This document shows positions 42,857-57,490 of a DNA stretch of 64,000 nucleotides, one piece after another. Numbering within the stretch: the first letter of the stretch is position 1; every line of letters begins with the position of its first letter. The notes under the pieces are model-generated. The model ran no database searches, was not told the origin of the DNA, and saw only the letters and a program-made list of their open reading frames with translations. The DNA is from an uncultured Solirubrobacterales bacterium (GTDB taxonomy: Bacteria > Actinomycetota > Thermoleophilia > Solirubrobacterales > Solirubrobacteraceae): assembly GCA_963806475.1 (NCBI GenBank), contig CAWDYK010000013.1:211905-275904 (forward strand). The letters are read 5' to 3'. The position numbers were made by a program, and so were the translations under genes.

Positions 42857-43240
42857 ATGAAAATCGAAGTGTTTGACCCCCCGATGTGCTGCTCGACCGG
42901 CGTGTGCGGCCCGAGCGTGCCGCCGGCGCTGAGCCGGTTCGCCGGCGACCTGGAGTGGCTCGCCGCCAAGGGCGTCGAGGTGACCCGCCACAACCTCGCC
43001 CACGAGCCGCAAGCGTTCATTGCCAGCGAGCAGGCACGCCAGGCACTGACCGAGCAGGGCAACGAGGCGCTGCCGCTGATCCTCGTCGACGGTGAGCCGG
43101 TCTCGAGCGGGCGCTACCCGTACCGCTCAGAGCTGGCCGGATGGACCGGCCTGCCGATCCCCAAGACCCGGGTGCGACTGACGATGGCGCCGCCGGTGTC
43201 CGGCTTTGGAGGCTGCTGCGGCGGCGCAGGGGGCTGCTGA
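42857..43240 (+). CDS. arsD: Arsenic metallochaperone ArsD
   Basis: FDPPMCCSTGVCG, LPLILVDG, C-terminal CC..C. Confidence 0.95.
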   Translation: MKIEVFDPPMCCSTGVCGPSVPPALSRFAGDLEWLAAKGVEVTRHNLAHEPQAFIASEQARQALTEQGNEALPLILVDGEPVSSGRYPYRSELAGWTGLPIPKTRVRLTMAPPVSGFGGCCGGAGGC

Positions 43241-45001
43241 TGAGCGACCTATCGACACTGCTTGAGGACCCCACCCGCGTTCTGTTCTTCACCGGCAAGG
43301 GCGGGATGGGCAAGACCACGCTCGCGTGCTCGACGGCGGTTGCGCTGGTCGGCGCCGGGCGGCGGGTGCTGCTCGTCTCCACCGATCCGGCTTCGAATCT
43401 CGACGAGGTGCTCGGCACGGAGCTCGCCGAGCAGCCCCGTCCGGTGGCGGGGATCGTCGGGCTTGACGCGGCGAACATCGATCCCGAGGCGGCGGCGCGC
43501 GACTATCGCGAGCGGATGGTCGGCCCGTACCGCGGGCTGCTCCCGGACAGCGCCCTGTCCAGCATGGAGGAAACGCTGTCCGGCGCGTGCACGGTGGAGA
43601 TCGCCGCGTTTGACGCGTTCGTGGGGCTGCTCGGCGATCCTGCGGGCACGGCGGGCTATGACCATGTGATCTTCGACACCGCGCCGACCGGGCATACGTT
43701 GCGGCTGCTGTCGCTGCCCGCGGCATGGACGGGGTTTATCGATACCAACACGACCGGGGTGTCGTGCCTGGGTCCGCTGGCCGGGTTGCAGGAGCAGCGC
43801 GAGCTGTACGCCGCGAGCGTGCGCGCGCTCGGGGACCCGGAGATGACGACGCTGGTGCTGGTCAGCCGCCCCGAGCAGACGGCGCTGGCGGAGGCCGAGC
43901 GCACGCGCGGCGAGCTCGCCGGCGCGGGGATGCGCCGCCAGGTGCTCGCGCTCAACGGCGTCTTTGAGGCCAACGGCAGCACCGATCGCACCGCCCGAGC
44001 GCTGAGCGAGCGCCACCGTGAGGCGCTGGCGGCGATCCCGGCCGGGCTCGCAAGCCTCCCCCGGGTGAAGGTCCCGCTGCTCGACTTCGCGCCGATCGGC
44101 GTCGACGCGCTCGCACGTGTGCTTCACCGCAACGGCTTTGTCCGCCCGCACGAGCAGCCTCCCGACGCCGAGCTGCCCGGTGAGCCACTCTCGCAGCTGA
44201 TCGATGAGCTCGAGTCCGGCGGCCGTGGGGTGATCATGACGATGGGCAAGGGTGGCGTCGGTAAGACGACGCTGGCCGCTGCGATCGCCTCAGAGCTCGC
44301 GCGTCGCGGGCATCACGTCCACTTGTCCACGACCGATCCCGCCGCGCACGTCCACGACGCCGTCGGCGAGGGGATCGCGGGGCTGTCGGTGTCGCGGATC
44401 GATCCTGCCGAGCAGACCCGCGTCTACTCCGAGCAGGTAATGGCGGCCGCCGGCGCCGATCTCGACGAGCAGGGCCGCGCGCTCTTGGAGGAAGACCTGC
44501 GCTCGCCGTGCACCGAGGAGATCGCCGTGTTCCGCGCGTTCGCCGACATCGTCGCCGACGGGCGAAGACGGCTTCGTGGTACTCGACACGGCCCCCACCG
44601 GCCACAGCCTGTTGCTGCTCGACGCGACCCAGTCCTACCATCGCGACATCGCCCGCGGCCTCTCGGAGGTGCCCGACGCGGTCGCGCACTTGCTGCCGCG
44701 CCTCCGGGATCCCGACTACACGCGGGTGCTGATCGTGACGCTTCCGGAGGCAACCCCGGTCCACGAGGCAGCGCGGCTCAGCGAGGACCTCGAACGCGCC
44801 GGAATCTCCCCATACGCGTGGATCGTCAACCAGAGCCTCGCCGCCGCCGGCGCGACGCACCCCACGCTCGCCGCCCGCGCGCGTGACGAGCACCCCTACC
44901 TCGCCGAGGCCGCGGGGCTCGCCGAGCGACTGGCGCTCGTCGCGTGGCAGCCGTACACGCCCGCCGGCGATCAGGGACTACGAGCGCTGGTCGCCGCATG
45001 A
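43240..45001 (+). CDS. arsA: Arsenical pump ATPase ArsA #1 (frameshift near 44560)
   Basis: Two Walker A motifs, STDPASNL, SGACTVE, DTAPTGH twice, SCLGP, SPCTEE. Confidence 0.93.
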
Positions 45002-45261
45002 GAGAGCTCACGCTCCTTGCCGTGCCGGATTGCCCGCTGAGCGATCACGCCCGCCAGGTGCTCGACACGCTCGCCGCGGAGAAGCTGCTGGTCTGGCGCG
45101 AGCTCACCACCGGAGCGCCCGGGACCGAGCACCTGGTCGATGGCGCGCCGGAGCTGCTGCCGGCGCTGTTGAACGAGTCCGATCAGATGATCGCGCACGG
45201 ACGGCTCTCCGAGCGCGCCCTGCGCCGGACCCTCGCGCCTGACCAACCGGGGGCGGCCTAG
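44998..45261 (+). CDS. Glutaredoxin-like small protein (CPLS)
   Basis: LLAVPDCPLSDHA..GRLSERALRR; ATG overlaps the arsA stop. Confidence 0.6.
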   Translation: MRELTLLAVPDCPLSDHARQVLDTLAAEKLLVWRELTTGAPGTEHLVDGAPELLPALLNESDQMIAHGRLSERALRRTLAPDQPGAA

Positions 45262-45286
45262 CCGTCTATCCAACACCGTCATTGCT

Positions 45287-45628
45287 ATGGCCTCTCCGCT
45301 CCCCAACATTCCCGCAAGCCCCGTCGCCGCGTGCTGTGCTCCCTCCGCCGGCATCGATCCGACGCTCGATGCCGAGCGGATCGCAGCGGTGGCGAAGGCG
45401 CTCGGCGAGCCATTGCGCGTGCAGATCGTTGACGTGCTGCGCCGCAGCGAGCAGGACATCTGCCAGTGCGCGCTGATCGCCGTGTTCGGCGTGCACCAGT
45501 CGCGTTTCGCCTACCACATGAAGAAGCTGATCGACGCGGGCCTCGTACGCGTCGAGCGTCGGCACAAGTGGGCCTACTACGCCATCCGCACCGACGCCGC
45601 ACAGGAGCTCAGCGCATGGCTGAGCTGA
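45287..45628 (+). CDS. ArsR/SmtB regulator #3
   Basis: ACCAP, KALGEPLRV, ICQC, YHMKKL. Confidence 0.85.
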   Translation: MASPLPNIPASPVAACCAPSAGIDPTLDAERIAAVAKALGEPLRVQIVDVLRRSEQDICQCALIAVFGVHQSRFAYHMKKLIDAGLVRVERRHKWAYYAIRTDAAQELSAWLS

Positions 45629-45975
45629 CCACCGACCGGCGCCAGCCTCGGTCCGCTCCGAGCAGCACGCGCGCGCGCAACCGGCACAGCGATCCCGGGC
45701 GTCCGGCGCCCGTCCCACCCGAGATGACCGAGACCGGTCCGGACGGTTCAGACGATGCTCCACGCGAGCAGGCGCATCGGCGTGCGTTCGCGCCGGCCGC
45801 TCTGAGTGAAGGTCTCAGGCTGCGCTGTGAACAGCGCGCCGAGTCGTGGCGATTACATCGATGACCATCGATACGTAGTTTCCGCGTTGGAAGTTTCGGG
45901 GCTTGCCCCGATGTTCATCGGGCAGCCCGGCGCGACAATACCCCTTGGGGGTATCGCTACGAAGGAAGGTTGACC

Positions 45976-47111
45976 ATGTGGGCGCAAATCGAACACAGAT
46001 CGGATGCCATCCGGTGTTTCCATCCGGCGTGGTTCGCGTCGGTGATGGGTACGGGCATCATCGCTGTCGCAACGCATCACGCCGATAAGGTTCTTCCCGG
46101 ACTTGAGGGATTTGCCGTCGTCCTGTGGGTGCTGAGCGCGGTGTTTTTCGTGGCTCTGATTGTGCCGTGGACGATCCGCTGGATCCGCTATCCGAGGGAG
46201 GCGTGGGCCGACACCGCGCATCCCACACGCGGCCCGTTCTACTCAACGATGCCGATCGCGCTGTTGGTCTTGGCCGTGGACTTCGCCGCGATCGGATCGA
46301 CGCACATGAACGCCGATACTGCGTTGAGCATTGCCAAGGGACTGTGGATCGTCGGGACACTGCTGGCGTTCTTCTTCGGCGTACTCGTGCCATCGCGGTG
46401 GCTGACCGGTTCAGCCTCGCTCGAGCACATCAACGGCGGGATGGTTCATCCCTCCGGTTGCCGACATCGTCGTTCCCGCCGCTGCCGCGCCGCTGATCTC
46501 CTCGTGGGGATCGCACGGCATGTCCGAGTTCGTCTGCGTTGTCGCATTCGCGTTCTTCGGGATCGGGATCATGCTGTTCATCATGCTCGGCGCGCTGCTG
46601 ATCGGCCGACTGATCCAGAACGGGCTTCCCGAAGCGCACCTCGCCCCAACGCTGTGGATCGGCCTCGGGCCGATCGGCGTCGGGAGCCTCGCGCTCGCGC
46701 GGCTGGCGACCACGGCAACGCCGCTGTTCGGCGCATACGCACCAGAGGCGCGGACGCTGCTGCTGCCTCGCTGCCGTCGCCATCTGGGGATTTGGGCTGT
46801 GGTGGCTCTCGACCGCGATCGTGCTCACGCTCCGCTACCTACGCGCACCATTCCCGTTCGCGATGAGCTGGTGGGCGTTCACATTCCCGCTCGGCGCCTA
46901 CACCGTCGCCACATTCGTTCTCGGTGACGCCTACAACGCCGACTACCTCACGGGATTCGGCTTCGCGCTGTGGGTGCTGCTGATCGGCTTCTGGGTCGTC
47001 GTTCTCGTTCGGACAGTCGCCGGCGCATTCACCGGAGCGCTGCTGAAGCCTCCACCCAGCTGCCCGCCCCGTGACCGCGCGCGAACGCCAGGCCATGCAA
47101 TCGCCGCCTGA
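45976..47111 (+). CDS. TDT/SLAC1 (tellurite-dicarboxylate) family transporter (frameshifted)
   Basis: PAWFASVMGTG, LWIGLGP, SWWAFTFPLGA. Confidence 0.88.
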
Positions 47112-47373
47112 CCCGAAGGCTCTCGTCTCAACAGAGATGAGATCCAAACGATGCACGCCACCGATTCTTTCGGGCTTGCTCGTGTTAGCGGTTAGGGAAA
47201 GCCCGGATCACGTTGGCGTCGGCGCCTCGGTCGACGGACGCCCGCGGCCGACAGCAGCTCGGTCGGTCATCGGTTCACGTGACGATTGGTTCTGTCTCTC
47301 TGGTGGCCCGTCGTGTGGCGTTGGCATTGGCTGGTGCGCCTGCGTGCGGACGGCCGGTAATGGTGGAGCGGAT

Positions 47374-47799
47374 GTGAGCGCCATGAACACGGTCTCAACC
47401 TCGAAGCCTAAGAGCGTGCCCGGTGCACCGCCACTCCTCGGCCCAGCGCCCCAGCCGGCTGACCTTGCGGGCACGGTCCGCCTCGCACGGTACGCGAAGG
47501 CGCTGGGCGAACCGATCCGCATCCGGCTCGTCGAGGTGCTTGCGCAGCATCCCGGCGAGCCGTGCGCGGGCGAGTTGCTGCCGCTGTTCGGTGTCGCTAA
47601 GTCGACCCTGTCTCATCACCTCAAGACGCTCGCCGACGCGGGCATCATCGAGACCAGGCATCAGGGCACGCTCGCCTACTGCCTCGTCCATCCACAAGCA
47701 TTGGCCGACCTGGCCGGCTGGCTCGGTCAGACCGCTCAGGACGGAACGCGGCGCGCCGGCGCCGAGCACCCGCCGCAGGCTGGCCGCGACGTAGCGTGA
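47374..47799 (+). CDS. ArsR/SmtB regulator #4 (paralog of #2)
   Basis: KALGEPIRI, KSTLSHHLKTLADAGI; near-collinear with #2. Confidence 0.85.
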   Translation: MSAMNTVSTSKPKSVPGAPPLLGPAPQPADLAGTVRLARYAKALGEPIRIRLVEVLAQHPGEPCAGELLPLFGVAKSTLSHHLKTLADAGIIETRHQGTLAYCLVHPQALADLAGWLGQTAQDGTRRAGAEHPPQAGRDVA

Positions 47800-47844
47800 T
47801 GGCCCGGAGCTGATCACGGACGAGCGGGGAGGGCGGTCAATCTG

Positions 47845-49624
47845 ATGGCGTCGCGCTCGCTGAACCGTCTGGACTGGGTGTCGTGGAGCACGCCGTTTCT
47901 GTTCTTCACGGGCAAGGGCGGGGTCGGGAAGACGACGGTCGCGAGCGCGGCGGCCATTGCGCTGGGTGATGCGGGCCGGCGTGTGCTGGTCGTCAGCACC
48001 GACCCGGCGTCGAACCTCGCGGACGTCTTCGGGGTCGCGGTCGGTTCGACGGTCACGACGGTGCCCGGAGCGCCTGGCGTGTCGGTGATGAACCTGGACC
48101 CTGACGCGGCAGCGGCTGCCTATCGCGAGCGTGTGATCGGCCCCTACCGTGGCGTGGTCTCCGAACGGGAGATCGGCGAGATCGAGGAGCAGCTGGCCGG
48201 CGAGTGCACGGTCGAGGTGGCCGCGTTTGATCAGTTCACGCAGCTGATCGTCCATCCGGAGCTGACCGGCCGCTATGACCACGTGATCTTCGACACCGCG
48301 CCTGACCGGTCACACGCTGCGGTTGATGGACCTGCCAAGCGCGTGGGCTGACTACATCGAGACCAGCCGGGAGGGCGCGAGCTGCCTGGGGCCCCGATCC
48401 GGGCTCGAGGCGCAACGCGAGCAGTATCAGGCCGCGGTCGCGCAGCTCGCCGACCCGCACCGCACCACGCTCGTGCTCGTCAGCCGCCCTGACCCAAGCG
48501 CGCTGCGCGAGGCCGCCCGCGCCGGCGGCGAGCTGGCCGACGAAGGCATCCGCAACCAGCGACTGGTGATCAACGGCCTGTTCGATCAGCCGCTGAGCGG
48601 CGACCGCGTCGCCGAGGCGCTCGCCGCGCGCCAGCGCCAAGCGCTCGAGTCAATACCCGCGTCCCTTCACGAGATCCCGATGGCAGGCGTTCCGCTGGTC
48701 GCCCTCGATCTCACCGGCGTCGCAGCGCTCCGCGCCCTGGCATCGGGCCGCACCACTCCTGCCCGGCCGTCAACGATCGCGCCCAACGATCAGCCTGCGT
48801 TGCCGGACCTGAACGCGCTCGTCGACGAGCTCGAGCGCGGCGGTCCGGGAGCAGTCCTGGTGATGGGCAAGGGCGGCGTCGGCAAGACCACGATCGCCGC
48901 CGCCCTCGCCGTCGCCCTCGCGCACCGCGGCCACGACGTGCACCTCTCGACGACCGATCCGGCAGGACGGATCAGCGACGTCCTCGCCGATGCCGCGCCC
49001 GACCATCTGACCGTCAGTCGAATCGACCCCGCCGCCGAGCTCGCGAACTACACCGCCGAGCGGTTGCGGGCGGCCGAGCGTTTTGACCCGGAACGGCGAG
49101 CGCTGCTGGTGGAGGATCTGCGCTCGCCGTGCACCGAGGAGCTCGCCGTGTTCCGCGCGTTCTCCGGCCTGCTCTCCGAAGCCCGCCGGCGATACGTGAT
49201 CATCGACACCGCCCCCAGCGGGCACACCCTGCGGCTGCTCGACCTGACCGGCTCCTATCACCGCCAGATCGTGCGCGACGCGGCCAGGCCAGCGGGGCGC
49301 TTCACGACCCCGCTGATGCGACTCCAAGACCCTGCATACACGCGGGTCCTGGTCGTCACGCTCGCAGAGCTGACTCCCGTCTCGGAGGCCGCCGCGCTGC
49401 AGGACGATCTCCGACGCGCCGGCATCGAACCATTCGGCTGGGTGATCAACGCAAGCCTCACCGGGAGCGGCACCCACGACCCGCTGCTGCTCGCCCGCGC
49501 CAACCTCGAACGTCCCCACCTGCACCGCGTCCGCGATCAACTCGCCGACCGAGCGTGGATCGTCCCATGGCAGATCCACACCCTGATCGGCGAACAACGA
49601 CTCGCCGAGCTCGCGAAGGCATAG
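47845..49624 (+). CDS. arsA: Arsenical pump ATPase ArsA #2 (frameshift near 48302)
   Basis: GKGGVGKT twice, AGECTVE, SCLGP, SPCTEE, DTAPSGH. Confidence 0.92.
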
Positions 49625-53460: not shown

Positions 53461-56400
53461 TCAGCTGCCGCCGAAGGCGTCGGCGCGGGCCGCCGCCCAG
53501 GCTCCGTACAGCTCGGTGACGGTCGACGGTGCGGGCCATTCTCCGGCCTGTAGTCGCTTGAGCGCTTCGCCGCCGCGCCGGCATGCGTGGGTGCGCGACC
53601 AGTCATAGGAGGAGGGCGCAGCGCCGTAGCGCGCTCGCCATGCGCGCATCGCTTCGCGAACCCGCTCCCGTGTCCATTGCGGCGCAATCGCGCCGGGATG
53701 ACAGCGTTTGCAATACGCGTAAGCGTCGCCCTTGCCGTTCCGTGGCGCGGTGGGCGCCCCGCAGCCACGGCACATGCCCCGGTAGCGCGCCTTCACCGCG
53801 CGTGCCTTATCGCCGGTCGGATCGGCTGAGGTAGGGCCTCGGCGAGGTGCCTTGTGGTCCTTTTCCGAGACCCCCCTCCCGAACCCGGCGTGACCATTTC
53901 TGATCACCGGGCTCTCCAGTGACTACTCCGTGTTTGTTCACGGAGGACACTCAATACCGTTTCGGCGTTCTGCATTACGCATACCTCCCGGTTCTCGGAT
54001 GTCCAGTCACCTGTGCTCCTTCGCCCTGTGGACGGCTTTCCCGTCCTCCTTGGTGCGGCGTGAATCGCACGACTACTATGGGCACTCCGTCACCCTGGGA
54101 CTCGCGCCCCGAGGGTTGATCCCGCGTTCGTCCCTGTCGTACGTCCGAGCGTGACTTAGGCGTCCGACTCATCTCCTTAATTGCCCTCACTGGGCAACGC
54201 TCCACGCTCCAAAGGTTGCAGCGACCTTTCTACGATGCCGCCGCAGAGCATGGCGCCGGTCTCGGGTGCCTTTCCGACGGACGGGCCTTTGCGTCTTCTG
54301 GAGATTCGGCTTCAGGCAATCCAGCTTTCGCCATATCACGCGGGTCCCACGACACCCCGGCCCTGACACCTGGGCCGACCGCCGTTTTGCTGGCATGCGC
54401 TTGTTCCGTTCACCTCTCGGATCCGGGTAAGCCATCAGACCCACGAACCTTCCTTCGAGTTCGTCCCGGCTGCGCCGGGGATACAACAGGGCGCCTCGCG
54501 GCGCATTAGAGATAGGGTGCGGCTCCCGTGGAGGGACGTCATTCTGCCTGGGGTAGACCGGGGATGATCCCGCCGGCGTAGCGGGCTTCGTGGACTCGTT
54601 TGCGTTCTTGTGTGAGGTGGAAGCGCCAGTAACTGTCGAAGTCGTTGTTGCTCTTCAGGGCGCGTAGCTTCAGCACGGCCTCGGCGCCTTCGAGTCCCCA
54701 GCGCGCCCCGGTGATGTCCATCCGGTCCTTCACCAAATGGCGACAGGCACCCTCGATCACGCCCGTGGCGATCGGCCACCCGTTCGCGAGCGCGGTCGGG
54801 TAGTCGAGGTAGGGGCGCTTGTTGAGCAGGTAGTCGGCGGCGTTGTCGGCGTTCTTGCGCTTGTCCGCGCCGAGCTGGCGGCTGGTGGCCTTGCGGCGGA
54901 TCGCGGCGGCGACCGTGCTGGCCTGACCGTCGAGAACCGCGCGCATCTTCTCGGCCACCCAGCGCTCGGCGGCCGGGTCGCCTTCTTCGAAGAAGCACCA
55001 CGCTGCGTCCCACAGGTACTCCATTACGTGAACACAATCGACAAGGATTGTGACCTTCACACCGCGCTTCTTGGCCTCCTTCTTGACCCTGTCGATCTGG
55101 TGGTTGTTGCCATCGACGAGCACGACCCAGCTGCGCTGATGATCGCCATCGCGGCGCTCGGCTTGGTCGAACATCCGCGCGATCACCCGGGCTGCGTCGT
55201 CGGTCACGCTCGCGCACACCCACTTGTTCTTCGCCTCGGGTCCGGCGCGGGCGTCCTCGCGCTCCTGATCGGTGGCGGGCAGGATGTCGGCCGGCGCTCT
55301 GACCTTGGGCGCGACCTCGTAGACCGCGGCGACCTCCGCCATCCGCTTGCGATTGCGCTTCTCACCCCGCGACAGGCGCGTTTTGAGCTTGTGCTCGGAG
55401 CTGGCGGCCTGCCTCTTGGTCTGCTCCCGCAGCGCCTCAGGGCGCATCACTACCCCCTTGGCGTCGCACGAGAGCACCAGCACATCGTCCTGATCGACGG
55501 CGTCGTGCTCGCGGTGCTCATAGAACGCCTCGAAGTCGACCGCGGCCCGGAGCGCCATCTCTTCGACCTGGCGTTTGCCGATCTGCACGCCGATGCTGCG
55601 GCGGATCGCGTCGGTGGCATCCTCGAACGATCCCCTCGGGGCCTCCAGCGCGACCAGCCGCCTGACGCCGTGCGAGTGCTTCTCCTCGGGCAGATTCAGC
55701 GTCGCATCGGCGACATACAGGTTCTCCTCCCCCCGCCGCCGGTACGCCAGCCTCCCGACCCTGACGTCGCCAAACACGCTCGCAAGCGGCCGGCTGTGAT
55801 CGCGCTCGACCGCCCGGCGCTCCACGCCGGCCGCGTCCACCACCTGATCCACACGCGGCTCGCGGAGCGCGCGCAGCTCGAGCTTGTCTTCCAACAGCGA
55901 TCGCAACAGCTCGCGGCCCTCGCTCTGCAGTAGATCCTCCAGCTCGGAGTGCTCAAGCCCGTCGGTCTCCACGCTCTCAAGCGAGCCCACGACCGCGTCA
56001 AACCGCCCCCGCGAGCGAGCAAAGGCATCCCCGCCGGACGGCGCGCCGCTCACGCGAGCGCGATCGCGCTCAAGATCCGTTGCATCATCGCCACCAGGCG
56101 CTGCGCCGGGCAGGAGTTCATCCGCCGGCGCGTAACCTTCGCCAGAACGGGTGCCAAGGTCGACGGTCATTGCGGCCACCTTTCGTGGTCGACGTTGATA
56201 GCTCAACGCCGACCTTCGGCACCCTCCTTATCGACTCCTGCCCGCCCCGCTCGGCGCCGCTAACCCCCTCAAACCAGGGGAAAGCCACGCCCAGCCGCCC
56301 AACCCACCGGGATCAACACCAGCCACGGCTCCCAGCAGCCCCAGCCGCCCAACCCAAAACCCCCCAATTTCCAGGGTGGTTCACCATCCTGGCACGACCC

Positions 56401-56554
56401 TCCACGAGAGCCGCACCCTTTAGAGATACGCCTTGACGGTCGCTTCTGCGCGTCCCAGCCGACGAGCGATCTCCGCGATCGACAGACCCTCCCCGTCGCG
56501 GTAGTAGCGGGCGAGTTGCGCCGCGCGGCGTCGTTCCACGACACGGTCGAGCAT
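53461..56554 (-). CDS. HTH/Zn-finger gene B (exon 1 56554-56421; exon 2 53824-53461), interrupted by an IS and a group II intron
   Basis: Joined exons read MLDRVVERRR..GLSIAEIARRLGRAEATVKAYL-Y-DPTGDKARAVKARYRGMCRGCG..YCKRC.. in frame. Confidence 0.88.
53825..54506 (-). mobile_element. ORF-less group II intron (IIA-like), copy 1
   Basis: DV GAGAGCCCGGUGAUCAGAAAUGGUCACGCCGGGUUCGG, DVI with bulged A, J2/3 GGA, residual ORF start MQNAETVLSVLRE, EBS loop. Confidence 0.9.
54514..56419 (-). mobile_element. ISKra4-family insertion sequence
   Basis: Terminal inverted repeats AGGGTGCGGCTC(C/T)C(C)GTGGAGGG; 8-bp TSD TTAGAGAT at 54506-54513 and 56420-56427. Confidence 0.9.
54539..56170 (-). CDS. ISKra4-family transposase
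   Basis: DAKGVVMR, LVDG, DCVHVMEYLW, GWPIATGVIEGACRHLVKDRMDITGARW; intact. Confidence 0.9.
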   Translation of the reverse strand: MTVDLGTRSGEGYAPADELLPGAAPGGDDATDLERDRARVSGAPSGGDAFARSRGRFDAVVGSLESVETDGLEHSELEDLLQSEGRELLRSLLEDKLELRALREPRVDQVVDAAGVERRAVERDHSRPLASVFGDVRVGRLAYRRRGEENLYVADATLNLPEEKHSHGVRRLVALEAPRGSFEDATDAIRRSIGVQIGKRQVEEMALRAAVDFEAFYEHREHDAVDQDDVLVLSCDAKGVVMRPEALREQTKRQAASSEHKLKTRLSRGEKRNRKRMAEVAAVYEVAPKVRAPADILPATDQEREDARAGPEAKNKWVCASVTDDAARVIARMFDQAERRDGDHQRSWVVLVDGNNHQIDRVKKEAKKRGVKVTILVDCVHVMEYLWDAAWCFFEEGDPAAERWVAEKMRAVLDGQASTVAAAIRRKATSRQLGADKRKNADNAADYLLNKRPYLDYPTALANGWPIATGVIEGACRHLVKDRMDITGARWGLEGAEAVLKLRALKSNNDFDSYWRFHLTQERKRVHEARYAGGIIPGLPQAE

Positions 56555-56619
56555 CAGACCCCAAGCCCACCGGAGGTGCTGGACGGCCCGCTCAAGTGCA
56601 GTCAGCGCGCGGGGCCATC

Positions 56620-56650
56620 TGAAGGTCTTTTGTTATCATCAGAGGGGCCG
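56620..56650. other. Hybrid att site, right junction of the LSR element (split by intron copy 2)
   Basis: Element arm CTTTTGTTATCATCAGA-GGGG; the gene A half continues after 57332. Confidence 0.75.
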
Positions 56651-57332
56651 GCTGAGGTAGGGCCTCGGCGAGGTGCCTTGTGGTCCTTTTCCGAGACCCC
56701 CCTCCCGAACCCGGCGTGACCATTTCTGATCACCGGGCTCTCCAGTGACTACTCCGTGTTTGTTCACGGAAGACACTCAATACCGTTTCGGCGTTCTGCA
56801 TTACGCATACCTCCCGGTTCTCGGATGTCCAGTCACCTGTGCTCCTTCGCCCTGTGGACGGCTTTCCCGTCCTCCTTGGTGCGGCGTGAATCGCACGACT
56901 ACTATGGGCACTCCGTCACCCTGGGACTCGCGCCCCGAGGGTTGATCCCGCGTTCGTCCCTGTCGTACGTCCGAGCGTGACTTAGGCGTCCGACTCATCT
57001 CCTTAATTGCCCTCACTGGGCAACGCTCCACGCTCCAAAGGTTGCAGCGACCTTTCTACGATGCCGCCGCAGAGCATGGCGCCGGTCTCGGGTGCCTTTC
57101 CGACGGACGGGCCTTTGCGTCTTCTGGAGATTCGGCTTCAGGCAATCCAGCTTTCGCCATATCACGCGGGTCCCACGACACCCCGGCCCTGACACCTGGG
57201 CCGACCGCCGTTTTGCTGGCATGCGCTTGTTCCGTTCACCTCTCGGATCCGGGTAAGCCATCAGACCCACGAACCTTCCTTCGAGTTCGTCCCGGCTGCG
57301 CCGGGGATACAACAGGGCGCCTCGCGGCGCAT
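56651..57332 (-). mobile_element. ORF-less group II intron, copy 2
   Basis: 682 nt; only one substitution versus copy 1 noticed by eye (GGAGGAC vs GGAAGAC). Confidence 0.9.
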
Positions 57333-57490
57333 TAGAAGTACGCCTTGATCGTCGCCGGGGAGCGACCGAGCCGGTCAGCGATCTGTCGGATCGAGAGGCC
57401 CTCGAACTCGCGGTAGTGCTGCGCCAGGGCGACCGCCCGGCGCCGCTCAAGAACCCGATCGGGAACTGCGGCTAGCGCCTTGCTGGTCAC
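57333..57490 (-). pseudogene. 5' half (HTH) of gene A
   Basis: GTG MTSKALAAVPDRVLERRRAVALAQHYREFEGLSIRQIADRLGRSPATIKAYF(Y). Confidence 0.85.

Follow-up and report, generated by a model that had tools for sequence, protein, structure and literature searches.

Two copies of an ORF-less group IIA1 intron of the ML lineage were identified in the 64,000-nucleotide stretch of DNA analysed here (the window), both on the minus strand. Copy A (53825..54506) and copy B (56651..57332) are each 682 nt long and are mismatched at 1 of 682 positions, intron nucleotide 562; a search of the source genome beyond these two found no third full-length copy. Both copies read AUGCG...CUACCUCAGC, corresponding to DNA that starts with ATGCGCC and ends with CCTACCTCAGC. 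In copy A, the 5' end, AUGCGC, lies at 54501..54506, with A1 at 54506 (57332 in copy B), and the 3-nt tail, AGC, lies at 53825..53827, with G(n-1) at 53826 and a spacer of 7 nt from the branch point to the splice site. The Rfam family Intron_gpII (RF00029, cut-off 40 bits) matched the 3' end of each copy, comprising domains V-VI, with 53.9 bits.

Each copy splits a small gene of the helix-turn-helix type at the same Y-[FL]-Y codon, TA|C. Host gene B consists of a 5' exon (57333..57490, minus strand) that encodes a helix-turn-helix and ends in ...KAYFY, and of a short 3' exon (56602..56650, minus strand); it could be restored, provided that copy B splices. In host gene A, the 5' exon (56421..56554, minus strand) is helix-turn-helix-like by similarity to gene B, ends in ...KAYLY and gave no Pfam match on its own, and the 3' exon (53461..53824, minus strand; DPTGDK...) carries two CxxC motifs and belongs to no significant Pfam or NCBIfam family. 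Gene A is disrupted by a 1.9-kb insertion sequence (IS) of the ISKra4 family (54514..56419, minus strand; transposase at 54539-56206), beyond which its 5' exon is separated from the intron. The IS is flanked by an 8-bp target duplication, ATCTCTAA (54506-54513 and 56420-56427), which contains A1; given that the duplication copied A1, A1 is older than the IS. The insertion point of the element coincides exactly with the 5' splice site of copy A; IBS1 was rebuilt by the target duplication, and IBS2 was altered. Elsewhere in the window, an intron-less homolog of the 3' part of gene A, apparently 5'-truncated and frameshifted, was observed at 32.4-32.8 kb, beside an apparent serine recombinase gene at 32.8-33.6 kb (by eye). 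The region 43141-49624, in which two ArsA-like ATPase genes with ArsR-like regulators upstream were recognized by eye in the ORF list, is likely an arsenic-resistance region.

With regard to the structure of the intron, the hallmarks of group II introns are present: domain V (53881..53914, minus strand), which is part of the Rfam match, shows the catalytic triad AGC, and domain VI (53828..53878, minus strand) has a basal stem of 4 bp and a bulged A at 53832. The delta G (54233) is followed directly by EBS1 (UAGAAA; together 54227..54233, minus strand), which is the IIA layout, and the position of the delta-delta' pair immediately 5' of EBS1 is a mark of IIA1/ML introns. A likely EBS2 (AGGCC, 54284..54288, minus strand) was read by eye and varies with the target among relatives, and the J2/3 GGA (54086..54088, minus strand) contains the gamma G, whose predicted partner is the last C. 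Domain IV holds a remnant of an RT/maturase ORF (53917..53975, minus strand), in which, by comparison with the homolog L065, the first 13 codons are joined to the last few. The mark of an ML-class protein is taken from the proteins of homologs rather than from the ORF-less copies: that of L046 has LtrA as its best PDB match (E 6e-110) and contains RT, maturase and HNH domains (PF00078, PF01348, PF21368). On the basis of this LtrA-like homolog protein and of the delta adjoining EBS1, sequence comparison assigns the intron to subgroup IIA1 and the ML class, two categories that correspond to each other (PMC4424553). Marks of subgroup IIB were not found, as the 3' exon base follows delta and the homolog protein is ML-like. 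The 6-nt spacer between branch point and 3' end that marks IIA1 is also absent, the spacer being 7 nt in the window copies. A refolding of domain VI by a strand shift with a 2-nt bulge gave no pairing by eye and cannot account for the 7-nt spacer.

The initial annotation had proposed that both copies carry A1 in place of G1 and a final GC in place of AY, and that these ends are fixed by the reading frame together with the EBS. The boundaries A1...GC are established by the EBS1, delta and gamma pairings, by empty alleles and by the IS duplication that includes A1. EBS1 (nt 275-280) pairs with five of the last six exon bases in each copy, and this falls to 3/6 and 4/6 in the two copies when A1 is counted as exonic. 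Delta G274 pairs with the C at exon position +1 in both copies, and gamma G419 within the J2/3 GGA is predicted to pair with the last C, C682; this pairing, which had also been proposed initially, is further backed by EBS1/gamma covariation over 100 homolog sites. In contigs from four of four soil runs, 53824 is fused to 56421, giving the empty allele TATCTCTA|CGATCC; these contigs come from one study, probably represent DNA, and were taken as empty alleles only, never as evidence of splicing. Eight more empty sites in homolog loci, with the pattern TA[CT]GA[CT]CC, show the same junction. The ends are set by the EBS1/delta pairing and the empty alleles. The reading frame alone cannot set them, since sliding both ends together by 1-2 nt still preserves it. 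The copies, reading AUGCG...GC, do not follow the boundary consensus GUGYG...AY; given that published exceptions to this consensus exist (PMC4238363, PMC4424553), the mismatch does not disqualify them as introns of group II.

The bulged A at position -8, which had been noted as unexpected for an IIA-like EBS layout, was confirmed at 53832 in copy A, as was the layout itself. In passages of PMC9294222, the spacer is 6 nt in bacterial IIA1 introns and 7 nt in several IIB and IIC groups. Among the 57 intron types of the clade described below, 40 have a 7-nt spacer and the other 17 a 6-nt spacer. As 15 of the 25 G1 types have a branch A at -8 and a 7-nt spacer, this position is not linked to A1. 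Among introns that share an EBS1, AC alternates with AGC, AAC or ACC (L159/L195; L152/L154; L275 and L100, the latter with its 3' end only). The tail of 2-3 nt that follows domain VI has repeatedly gained or lost a base (AC, AGC, AAC, ACC, GAC, GGC, GUC), and this accounts for the -8 branch A without reference to A1. It is a labile-tail trait of the lineage that is unrelated to A1.

Within the same genus, 73 of 346 genomes contain some match to the intron, ORF-bearing homologs included. ORF-bearing homologs also occur in other, mostly actinobacterial, genomes, and the closest named records are Solirubrobacterales MAGs; a phage sequence collection gave no match to the intron. The family to which the window copies belong (A1...AGC, target TCTA|C) was found with both ends at 22 distinct sites, spread over 5 genomes; 18 of these sites hold an ORF-less copy, and the within-genome medians are 0.99-0.999 for intron identity against 0.45-0.58 for flank identity. 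All 23 of the 23 5' ends carrying the EBS1 of the window begin with A. Two loci, L065 and L066, encode intact 594-aa YADD proteins, lie in different gene copies and are 1/2408 nt apart. The genome G355 contains at least 46 matches to the window intron; both G355 and G334, two genomes with 8-9% contamination, contain ORF-bearing relatives, and paired copies on a single contig (L130; the window) are independent of binning. From precise insertion at many sites we infer splicing and reverse splicing, and the A1...AGC type has likely retrohomed. The source assembly, G000, which is 86% complete, yielded no ML-class protein, and its RTs belong only to other lineages (32-34% identity). The marks of a trans-mobilised ORF-less intron, namely an ORF deleted with remnants left behind and multiple copies at EBS-matched sites, are present. 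In the clade, the ORF was deleted several times with differing breakpoints, and short N- and C-terminal remnants persist in every case (L063, L067, L152, L156, L159, L274, L322, L014). Twintrons are also numerous, with clade members targeting other group II introns, the RNA domains of their own family and RT ORFs (L152-L155, L044, L072, L080, L082, L169, L054, L091).

Both ends were called at 100 distinct sites. EBS1 was paired at 5 or 6 of 6 positions at 94 of these, and at 34 of 36 A1 sites, over 10 EBS1 sequences; gamma and delta together led to one 3' end at 82 of the 100 sites, to two at 4 and to none at 14. Seven sites were dropped, being nested or hybrid (L231, L232, L178), unclear in domain VI (L246, L252), devoid of a boundary call (L230) or ambiguous by one base at each end (L081), which left 93 sites, 12 of them called by hand; at 95% identity these form 57 types. 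No claim made here draws on the unpublished genomes G030, G126 and G194. In this mostly actinobacterial clade, of which several hundred more members are estimated to exist, the first base can be G, C, A or U, and 10 of the 16 possible end combinations are present. Given as first/penultimate base, the 57 types comprise G/A 19, G/G 5 and G/U 1; A/G 8, A/A 3 and A/U 1; C/G 15, C/A 1 and C/C 1; and U/G 3. G(n-1) occurs in 26 of 32 non-G1 types, against 5 of 25 G1 types, and 19 of 25 G1 types have A(n-1). The corresponding counts (G1/A 19, G1/G 5, non-G1/A 4, non-G1/G 26) give a Fisher p of 1.2e-6, uncorrected and with kinship ignored; kin are not independent. Of 632 columns, only one, an EBS2 column, has higher mutual information with G1 status than n-1. 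No link was seen between nucleotide 1 and the first 3' exon base. At L081 (G231) and L096 (G333), the 5' junction is one base short, as is the 3' junction of L081, which may reflect either a true intron without nucleotide 1 or homopolymer miscalls.

On the tree, G1 status changes 7 times, with at least 4 changes forced by starred branches, and there are 14 changes at nucleotide 1, 11 at n-1 and 9 in the spacer. The well-supported (starred) independent pairs number 3, of which 2.5-2.6 are concordant and 0 opposite (p 0.25). The homolog alignment that had been suggested as a check for covariation thus gave a raw association, whereas the relatedness-aware pairs were non-significant; we regard an association between nucleotide 1 and n-1 as plausible. 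A later tree, which is midpoint-rooted, omits L021, L054, L165 and L052 and adds 8 plasmid introns read by eye. Among 12 actinobacterial plasmid records, 9 have both ends readable, 8 of which are G1...AC and 1 C1...GU (by eye); A1 was not found among the 9 cultured-isolate plasmid introns and was seen only in MAG and metagenome contigs. Eight ML introns of other phyla were also read by eye: 7/8 start with GUGCG and 7/8 end in AC six bases after the branch A. G1...AC is likely the ancestral state. Another departure at n-1 was noticed in the Nostoc member of these other-phyla introns, L407, an ML-class intron of a plasmid, which apparently has G1...CU ends with a gamma A.

The reading that we favour, with a probability of about 0.65, is that the window contains an ORF-deleted IIA1/ML intron with true A1...GC ends, which splices by branching and retrohomes in trans, and for which A1-G(n-1) is among the tolerated pairs. 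It builds on what is observed: where the intron begins and ends, its IIA layout for exon recognition, what is left of the ORF, precise insertion at many sites, and the range of end states across the clade. The protein of a related intron, supplied in trans, would enable splicing by branching and retrohoming. A675 would attack A1, yielding a 2'-5' A-A branch, and the 3' splice site would be docked by the gamma G419-C682 and delta G274-C(+1) pairs. The contact between the first and penultimate nucleotides, whose original source is reportedly Chanfreau and Jacquier (1993), would be retained while accepting other partners, A1 being predicted to pair with G(n-1). The likely route would lead from G1/A to G1/G, after which drift could turn nucleotide 1 into C, A or U, and G1/A would now and then be regained. 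The interaction as such is documented for group II introns (PMC4238363, PMC3669008, PMC4424553). Nevertheless, some observations speak against this explanation. Ten of the 57 types lie outside the proposed compatible pairs (G/G 5, A/A 3, C/A 1, C/C 1). As G at n-1 opposite G1 is among the changes most damaging to step 2 in RmInt1 (PMC4238363), an easy G1/G intermediate is disfavoured. In a IIC structure, O6 of G1 touches domain VI before branching (PMC10733145); A1 has no O6, so this contact is not possible for it.

It is possible, though on balance doubtful, that in this mobile IIA1 clade an exchangeable base pair has replaced the near-invariant G1-A(n-1) contact. The common end combinations are able to pair on their Watson-Crick edges. 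The pairs G.A, A.G, C-G, U.G, G.U and A-U account for 47 of the 57 types, whereas shuffling, with relatedness ignored, gives a mean of 30; this would be in keeping with pairing through the Watson-Crick edge, as opposed to a contact specific for G. The first/penultimate pair is described as non-Watson-Crick in passages of the literature.

Other explanations have to be weighed against the favoured one. The contact may simply have been relaxed, with both ends drifting, perhaps via junction errors during retrohoming, docking left to the protein and to gamma/delta, and the association due to shared ancestry. The many changes on the tree at nucleotide 1, n-1 and the spacer, the variety of end combinations and the non-significant independent pairs are consistent with this view, as are sister types that are unlike at one end only (L050 G1/GUC and L086 A1/GUC; L159 A1/AC and L063 A1/GGC). 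We nevertheless consider it rather unlikely: none of the independent pairs was opposite in 200 pairings, C1/G is seen again in different starred branches and in L399, from a finished Streptomyces plasmid, and ends are constant inside families, as in the 23/23 A1 ends mentioned above. A more specific proposal, that of the initial annotation, is a reciprocal swap of G1/A(n-1) to A1/G(n-1). One part of it holds, namely that the loss of G1 goes along with G(n-1). A1/G is, moreover, the commonest A1 state (8/12 types, 30/35 sites), and the sister of the window's family is a G1...GAC family (support 99/91). The specificity for A does not hold: G(n-1) is found with C1 (15), A1 (8), G1 (5) and U1 (3), so that the C1/G and U1/G types jointly exceed A1/G, and A1 is likewise combined with A (3) and U (1). 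Furthermore, the earliest branches of the subclade are A1/GGC, U1/GGC and C1/AGU on the midpoint-rooted tree, in which case the G1...GAC sister may be a reversion, and the independent pairs are the same three. A strict swap, in the sense of a specific isosteric exchange, is accordingly improbable, and G(n-1) looks like a permissive partner rather than half of an A-specific swap.

Finally, the copies could be dead, mis-assembled or spliced elsewhere, which would make the odd ends functionally meaningless. The missing cognate protein in an 86% complete genome points in this direction, together with the loss of the IBS2 context of copy A to the IS and the single-base losses at the junctions of L068, L081, L148 and L157, which resemble homopolymer miscalls. 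Canonical homologs, which the initial annotation had named along with inactive copies as a possible counter-argument, do exist. However, the type is multi-copy, its ends being the same at 22 sites across 5 genomes, and some of its members carry an intact ORF; A1 was copied in the IS duplication, and the empty alleles agree with the predicted junction. We therefore attach very little weight to this explanation.

Compared with known systems, the intron most resembles the Ll.LtrB type of IIA1 (ML, LtrA) in having delta beside EBS1, a GGA J2/3, a similar domain V and an LtrA-like homolog protein, and the Lactococcus relaxase-gene intron L406, which is of this type, shows the same layout. In contrast to this type, with its G1 and A(n-1), the window intron has A1 and G(n-1), a spacer of 7 nt instead of 6 (PMC9294222) and a deleted ORF. 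RmInt1 of Sinorhizobium meliloti is likewise a natural, mobile intron whose penultimate base departs from AY, as it ends in CC (PMC4238363); its described departure is at n-1 alone, and it uses EBS3 (IIB-like), whereas the window intron is of the IIA type and is changed at both ends. The ORF-less TeI3 of Thermosynechococcus elongatus also combines ORF deletion leaving N- and C-terminal remnants with many sites, retargeting via EBS change and mobilisation in trans (PMC2882425), but its lineage is IIB1/CL1 (PMC8643678, on T.el4h). Known departures from GUGYG...AY include fungal rRNA IIB1 introns, C.te.I1 and class B introns with domain VII (PMC4424553); in these, splice sites are shifted by 1-70 nt, whereas the window intron keeps the site in place and has other bases at its termini. 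The intron class and the mobilisation of ORF-less copies in trans (PMC2882425) are thus already known, and the published departures that we found either affect only n-1, as in RmInt1, or shift the splice site (PMC4424553). The literature searched yielded no description of introns with natural A1/G(n-1) ends or of this clade, and an earlier description of non-G1 introns may exist; the available passages of PMC3552965, PMC3753933, PMC8919778, PMC3245105, PMC11751092 and PMC4615759 make no mention of substituted terminal bases.

A single clade thus offers ten natural end combinations in ribozymes that are about 85-90% identical, several of them multi-copy. These variants are ready substrates for studying the geometry of the pair and the need for G1 in branching and reverse splicing. 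Boundary finders built on GUGYG...AY may miss or miscall the introns of the clade, which also adds a prolific case of ORF-less introns, described in reviews as rare in bacteria. Group II and spliceosomal introns have been likened to each other partly on account of the first/penultimate interaction (PMC4424553). If the exchangeable pair were true, A1...GC would represent a natural, retrohoming group II counterpart of the AT-AC spliceosomal introns. The first base of T.el4h may be U.

Further group II introns of other lineages were observed in the source assembly on contigs C23, C27, C29 and C30, and the ORF-less-looking introns of C27 and C30 carry the target sequence of a GCGAA-specific A1...AGC family. 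Variation in J2/3 was also noted. In the C1...GU sub-lineage comprising L218, L219, L235, L264, L314, L318, L331 and L343, J2/3 is ACA rather than RGA, and domain V still opens with the AGC triad. Elsewhere, J2/3 reads GGT in L241, GTA in L329 and L336, and GGG in L067.
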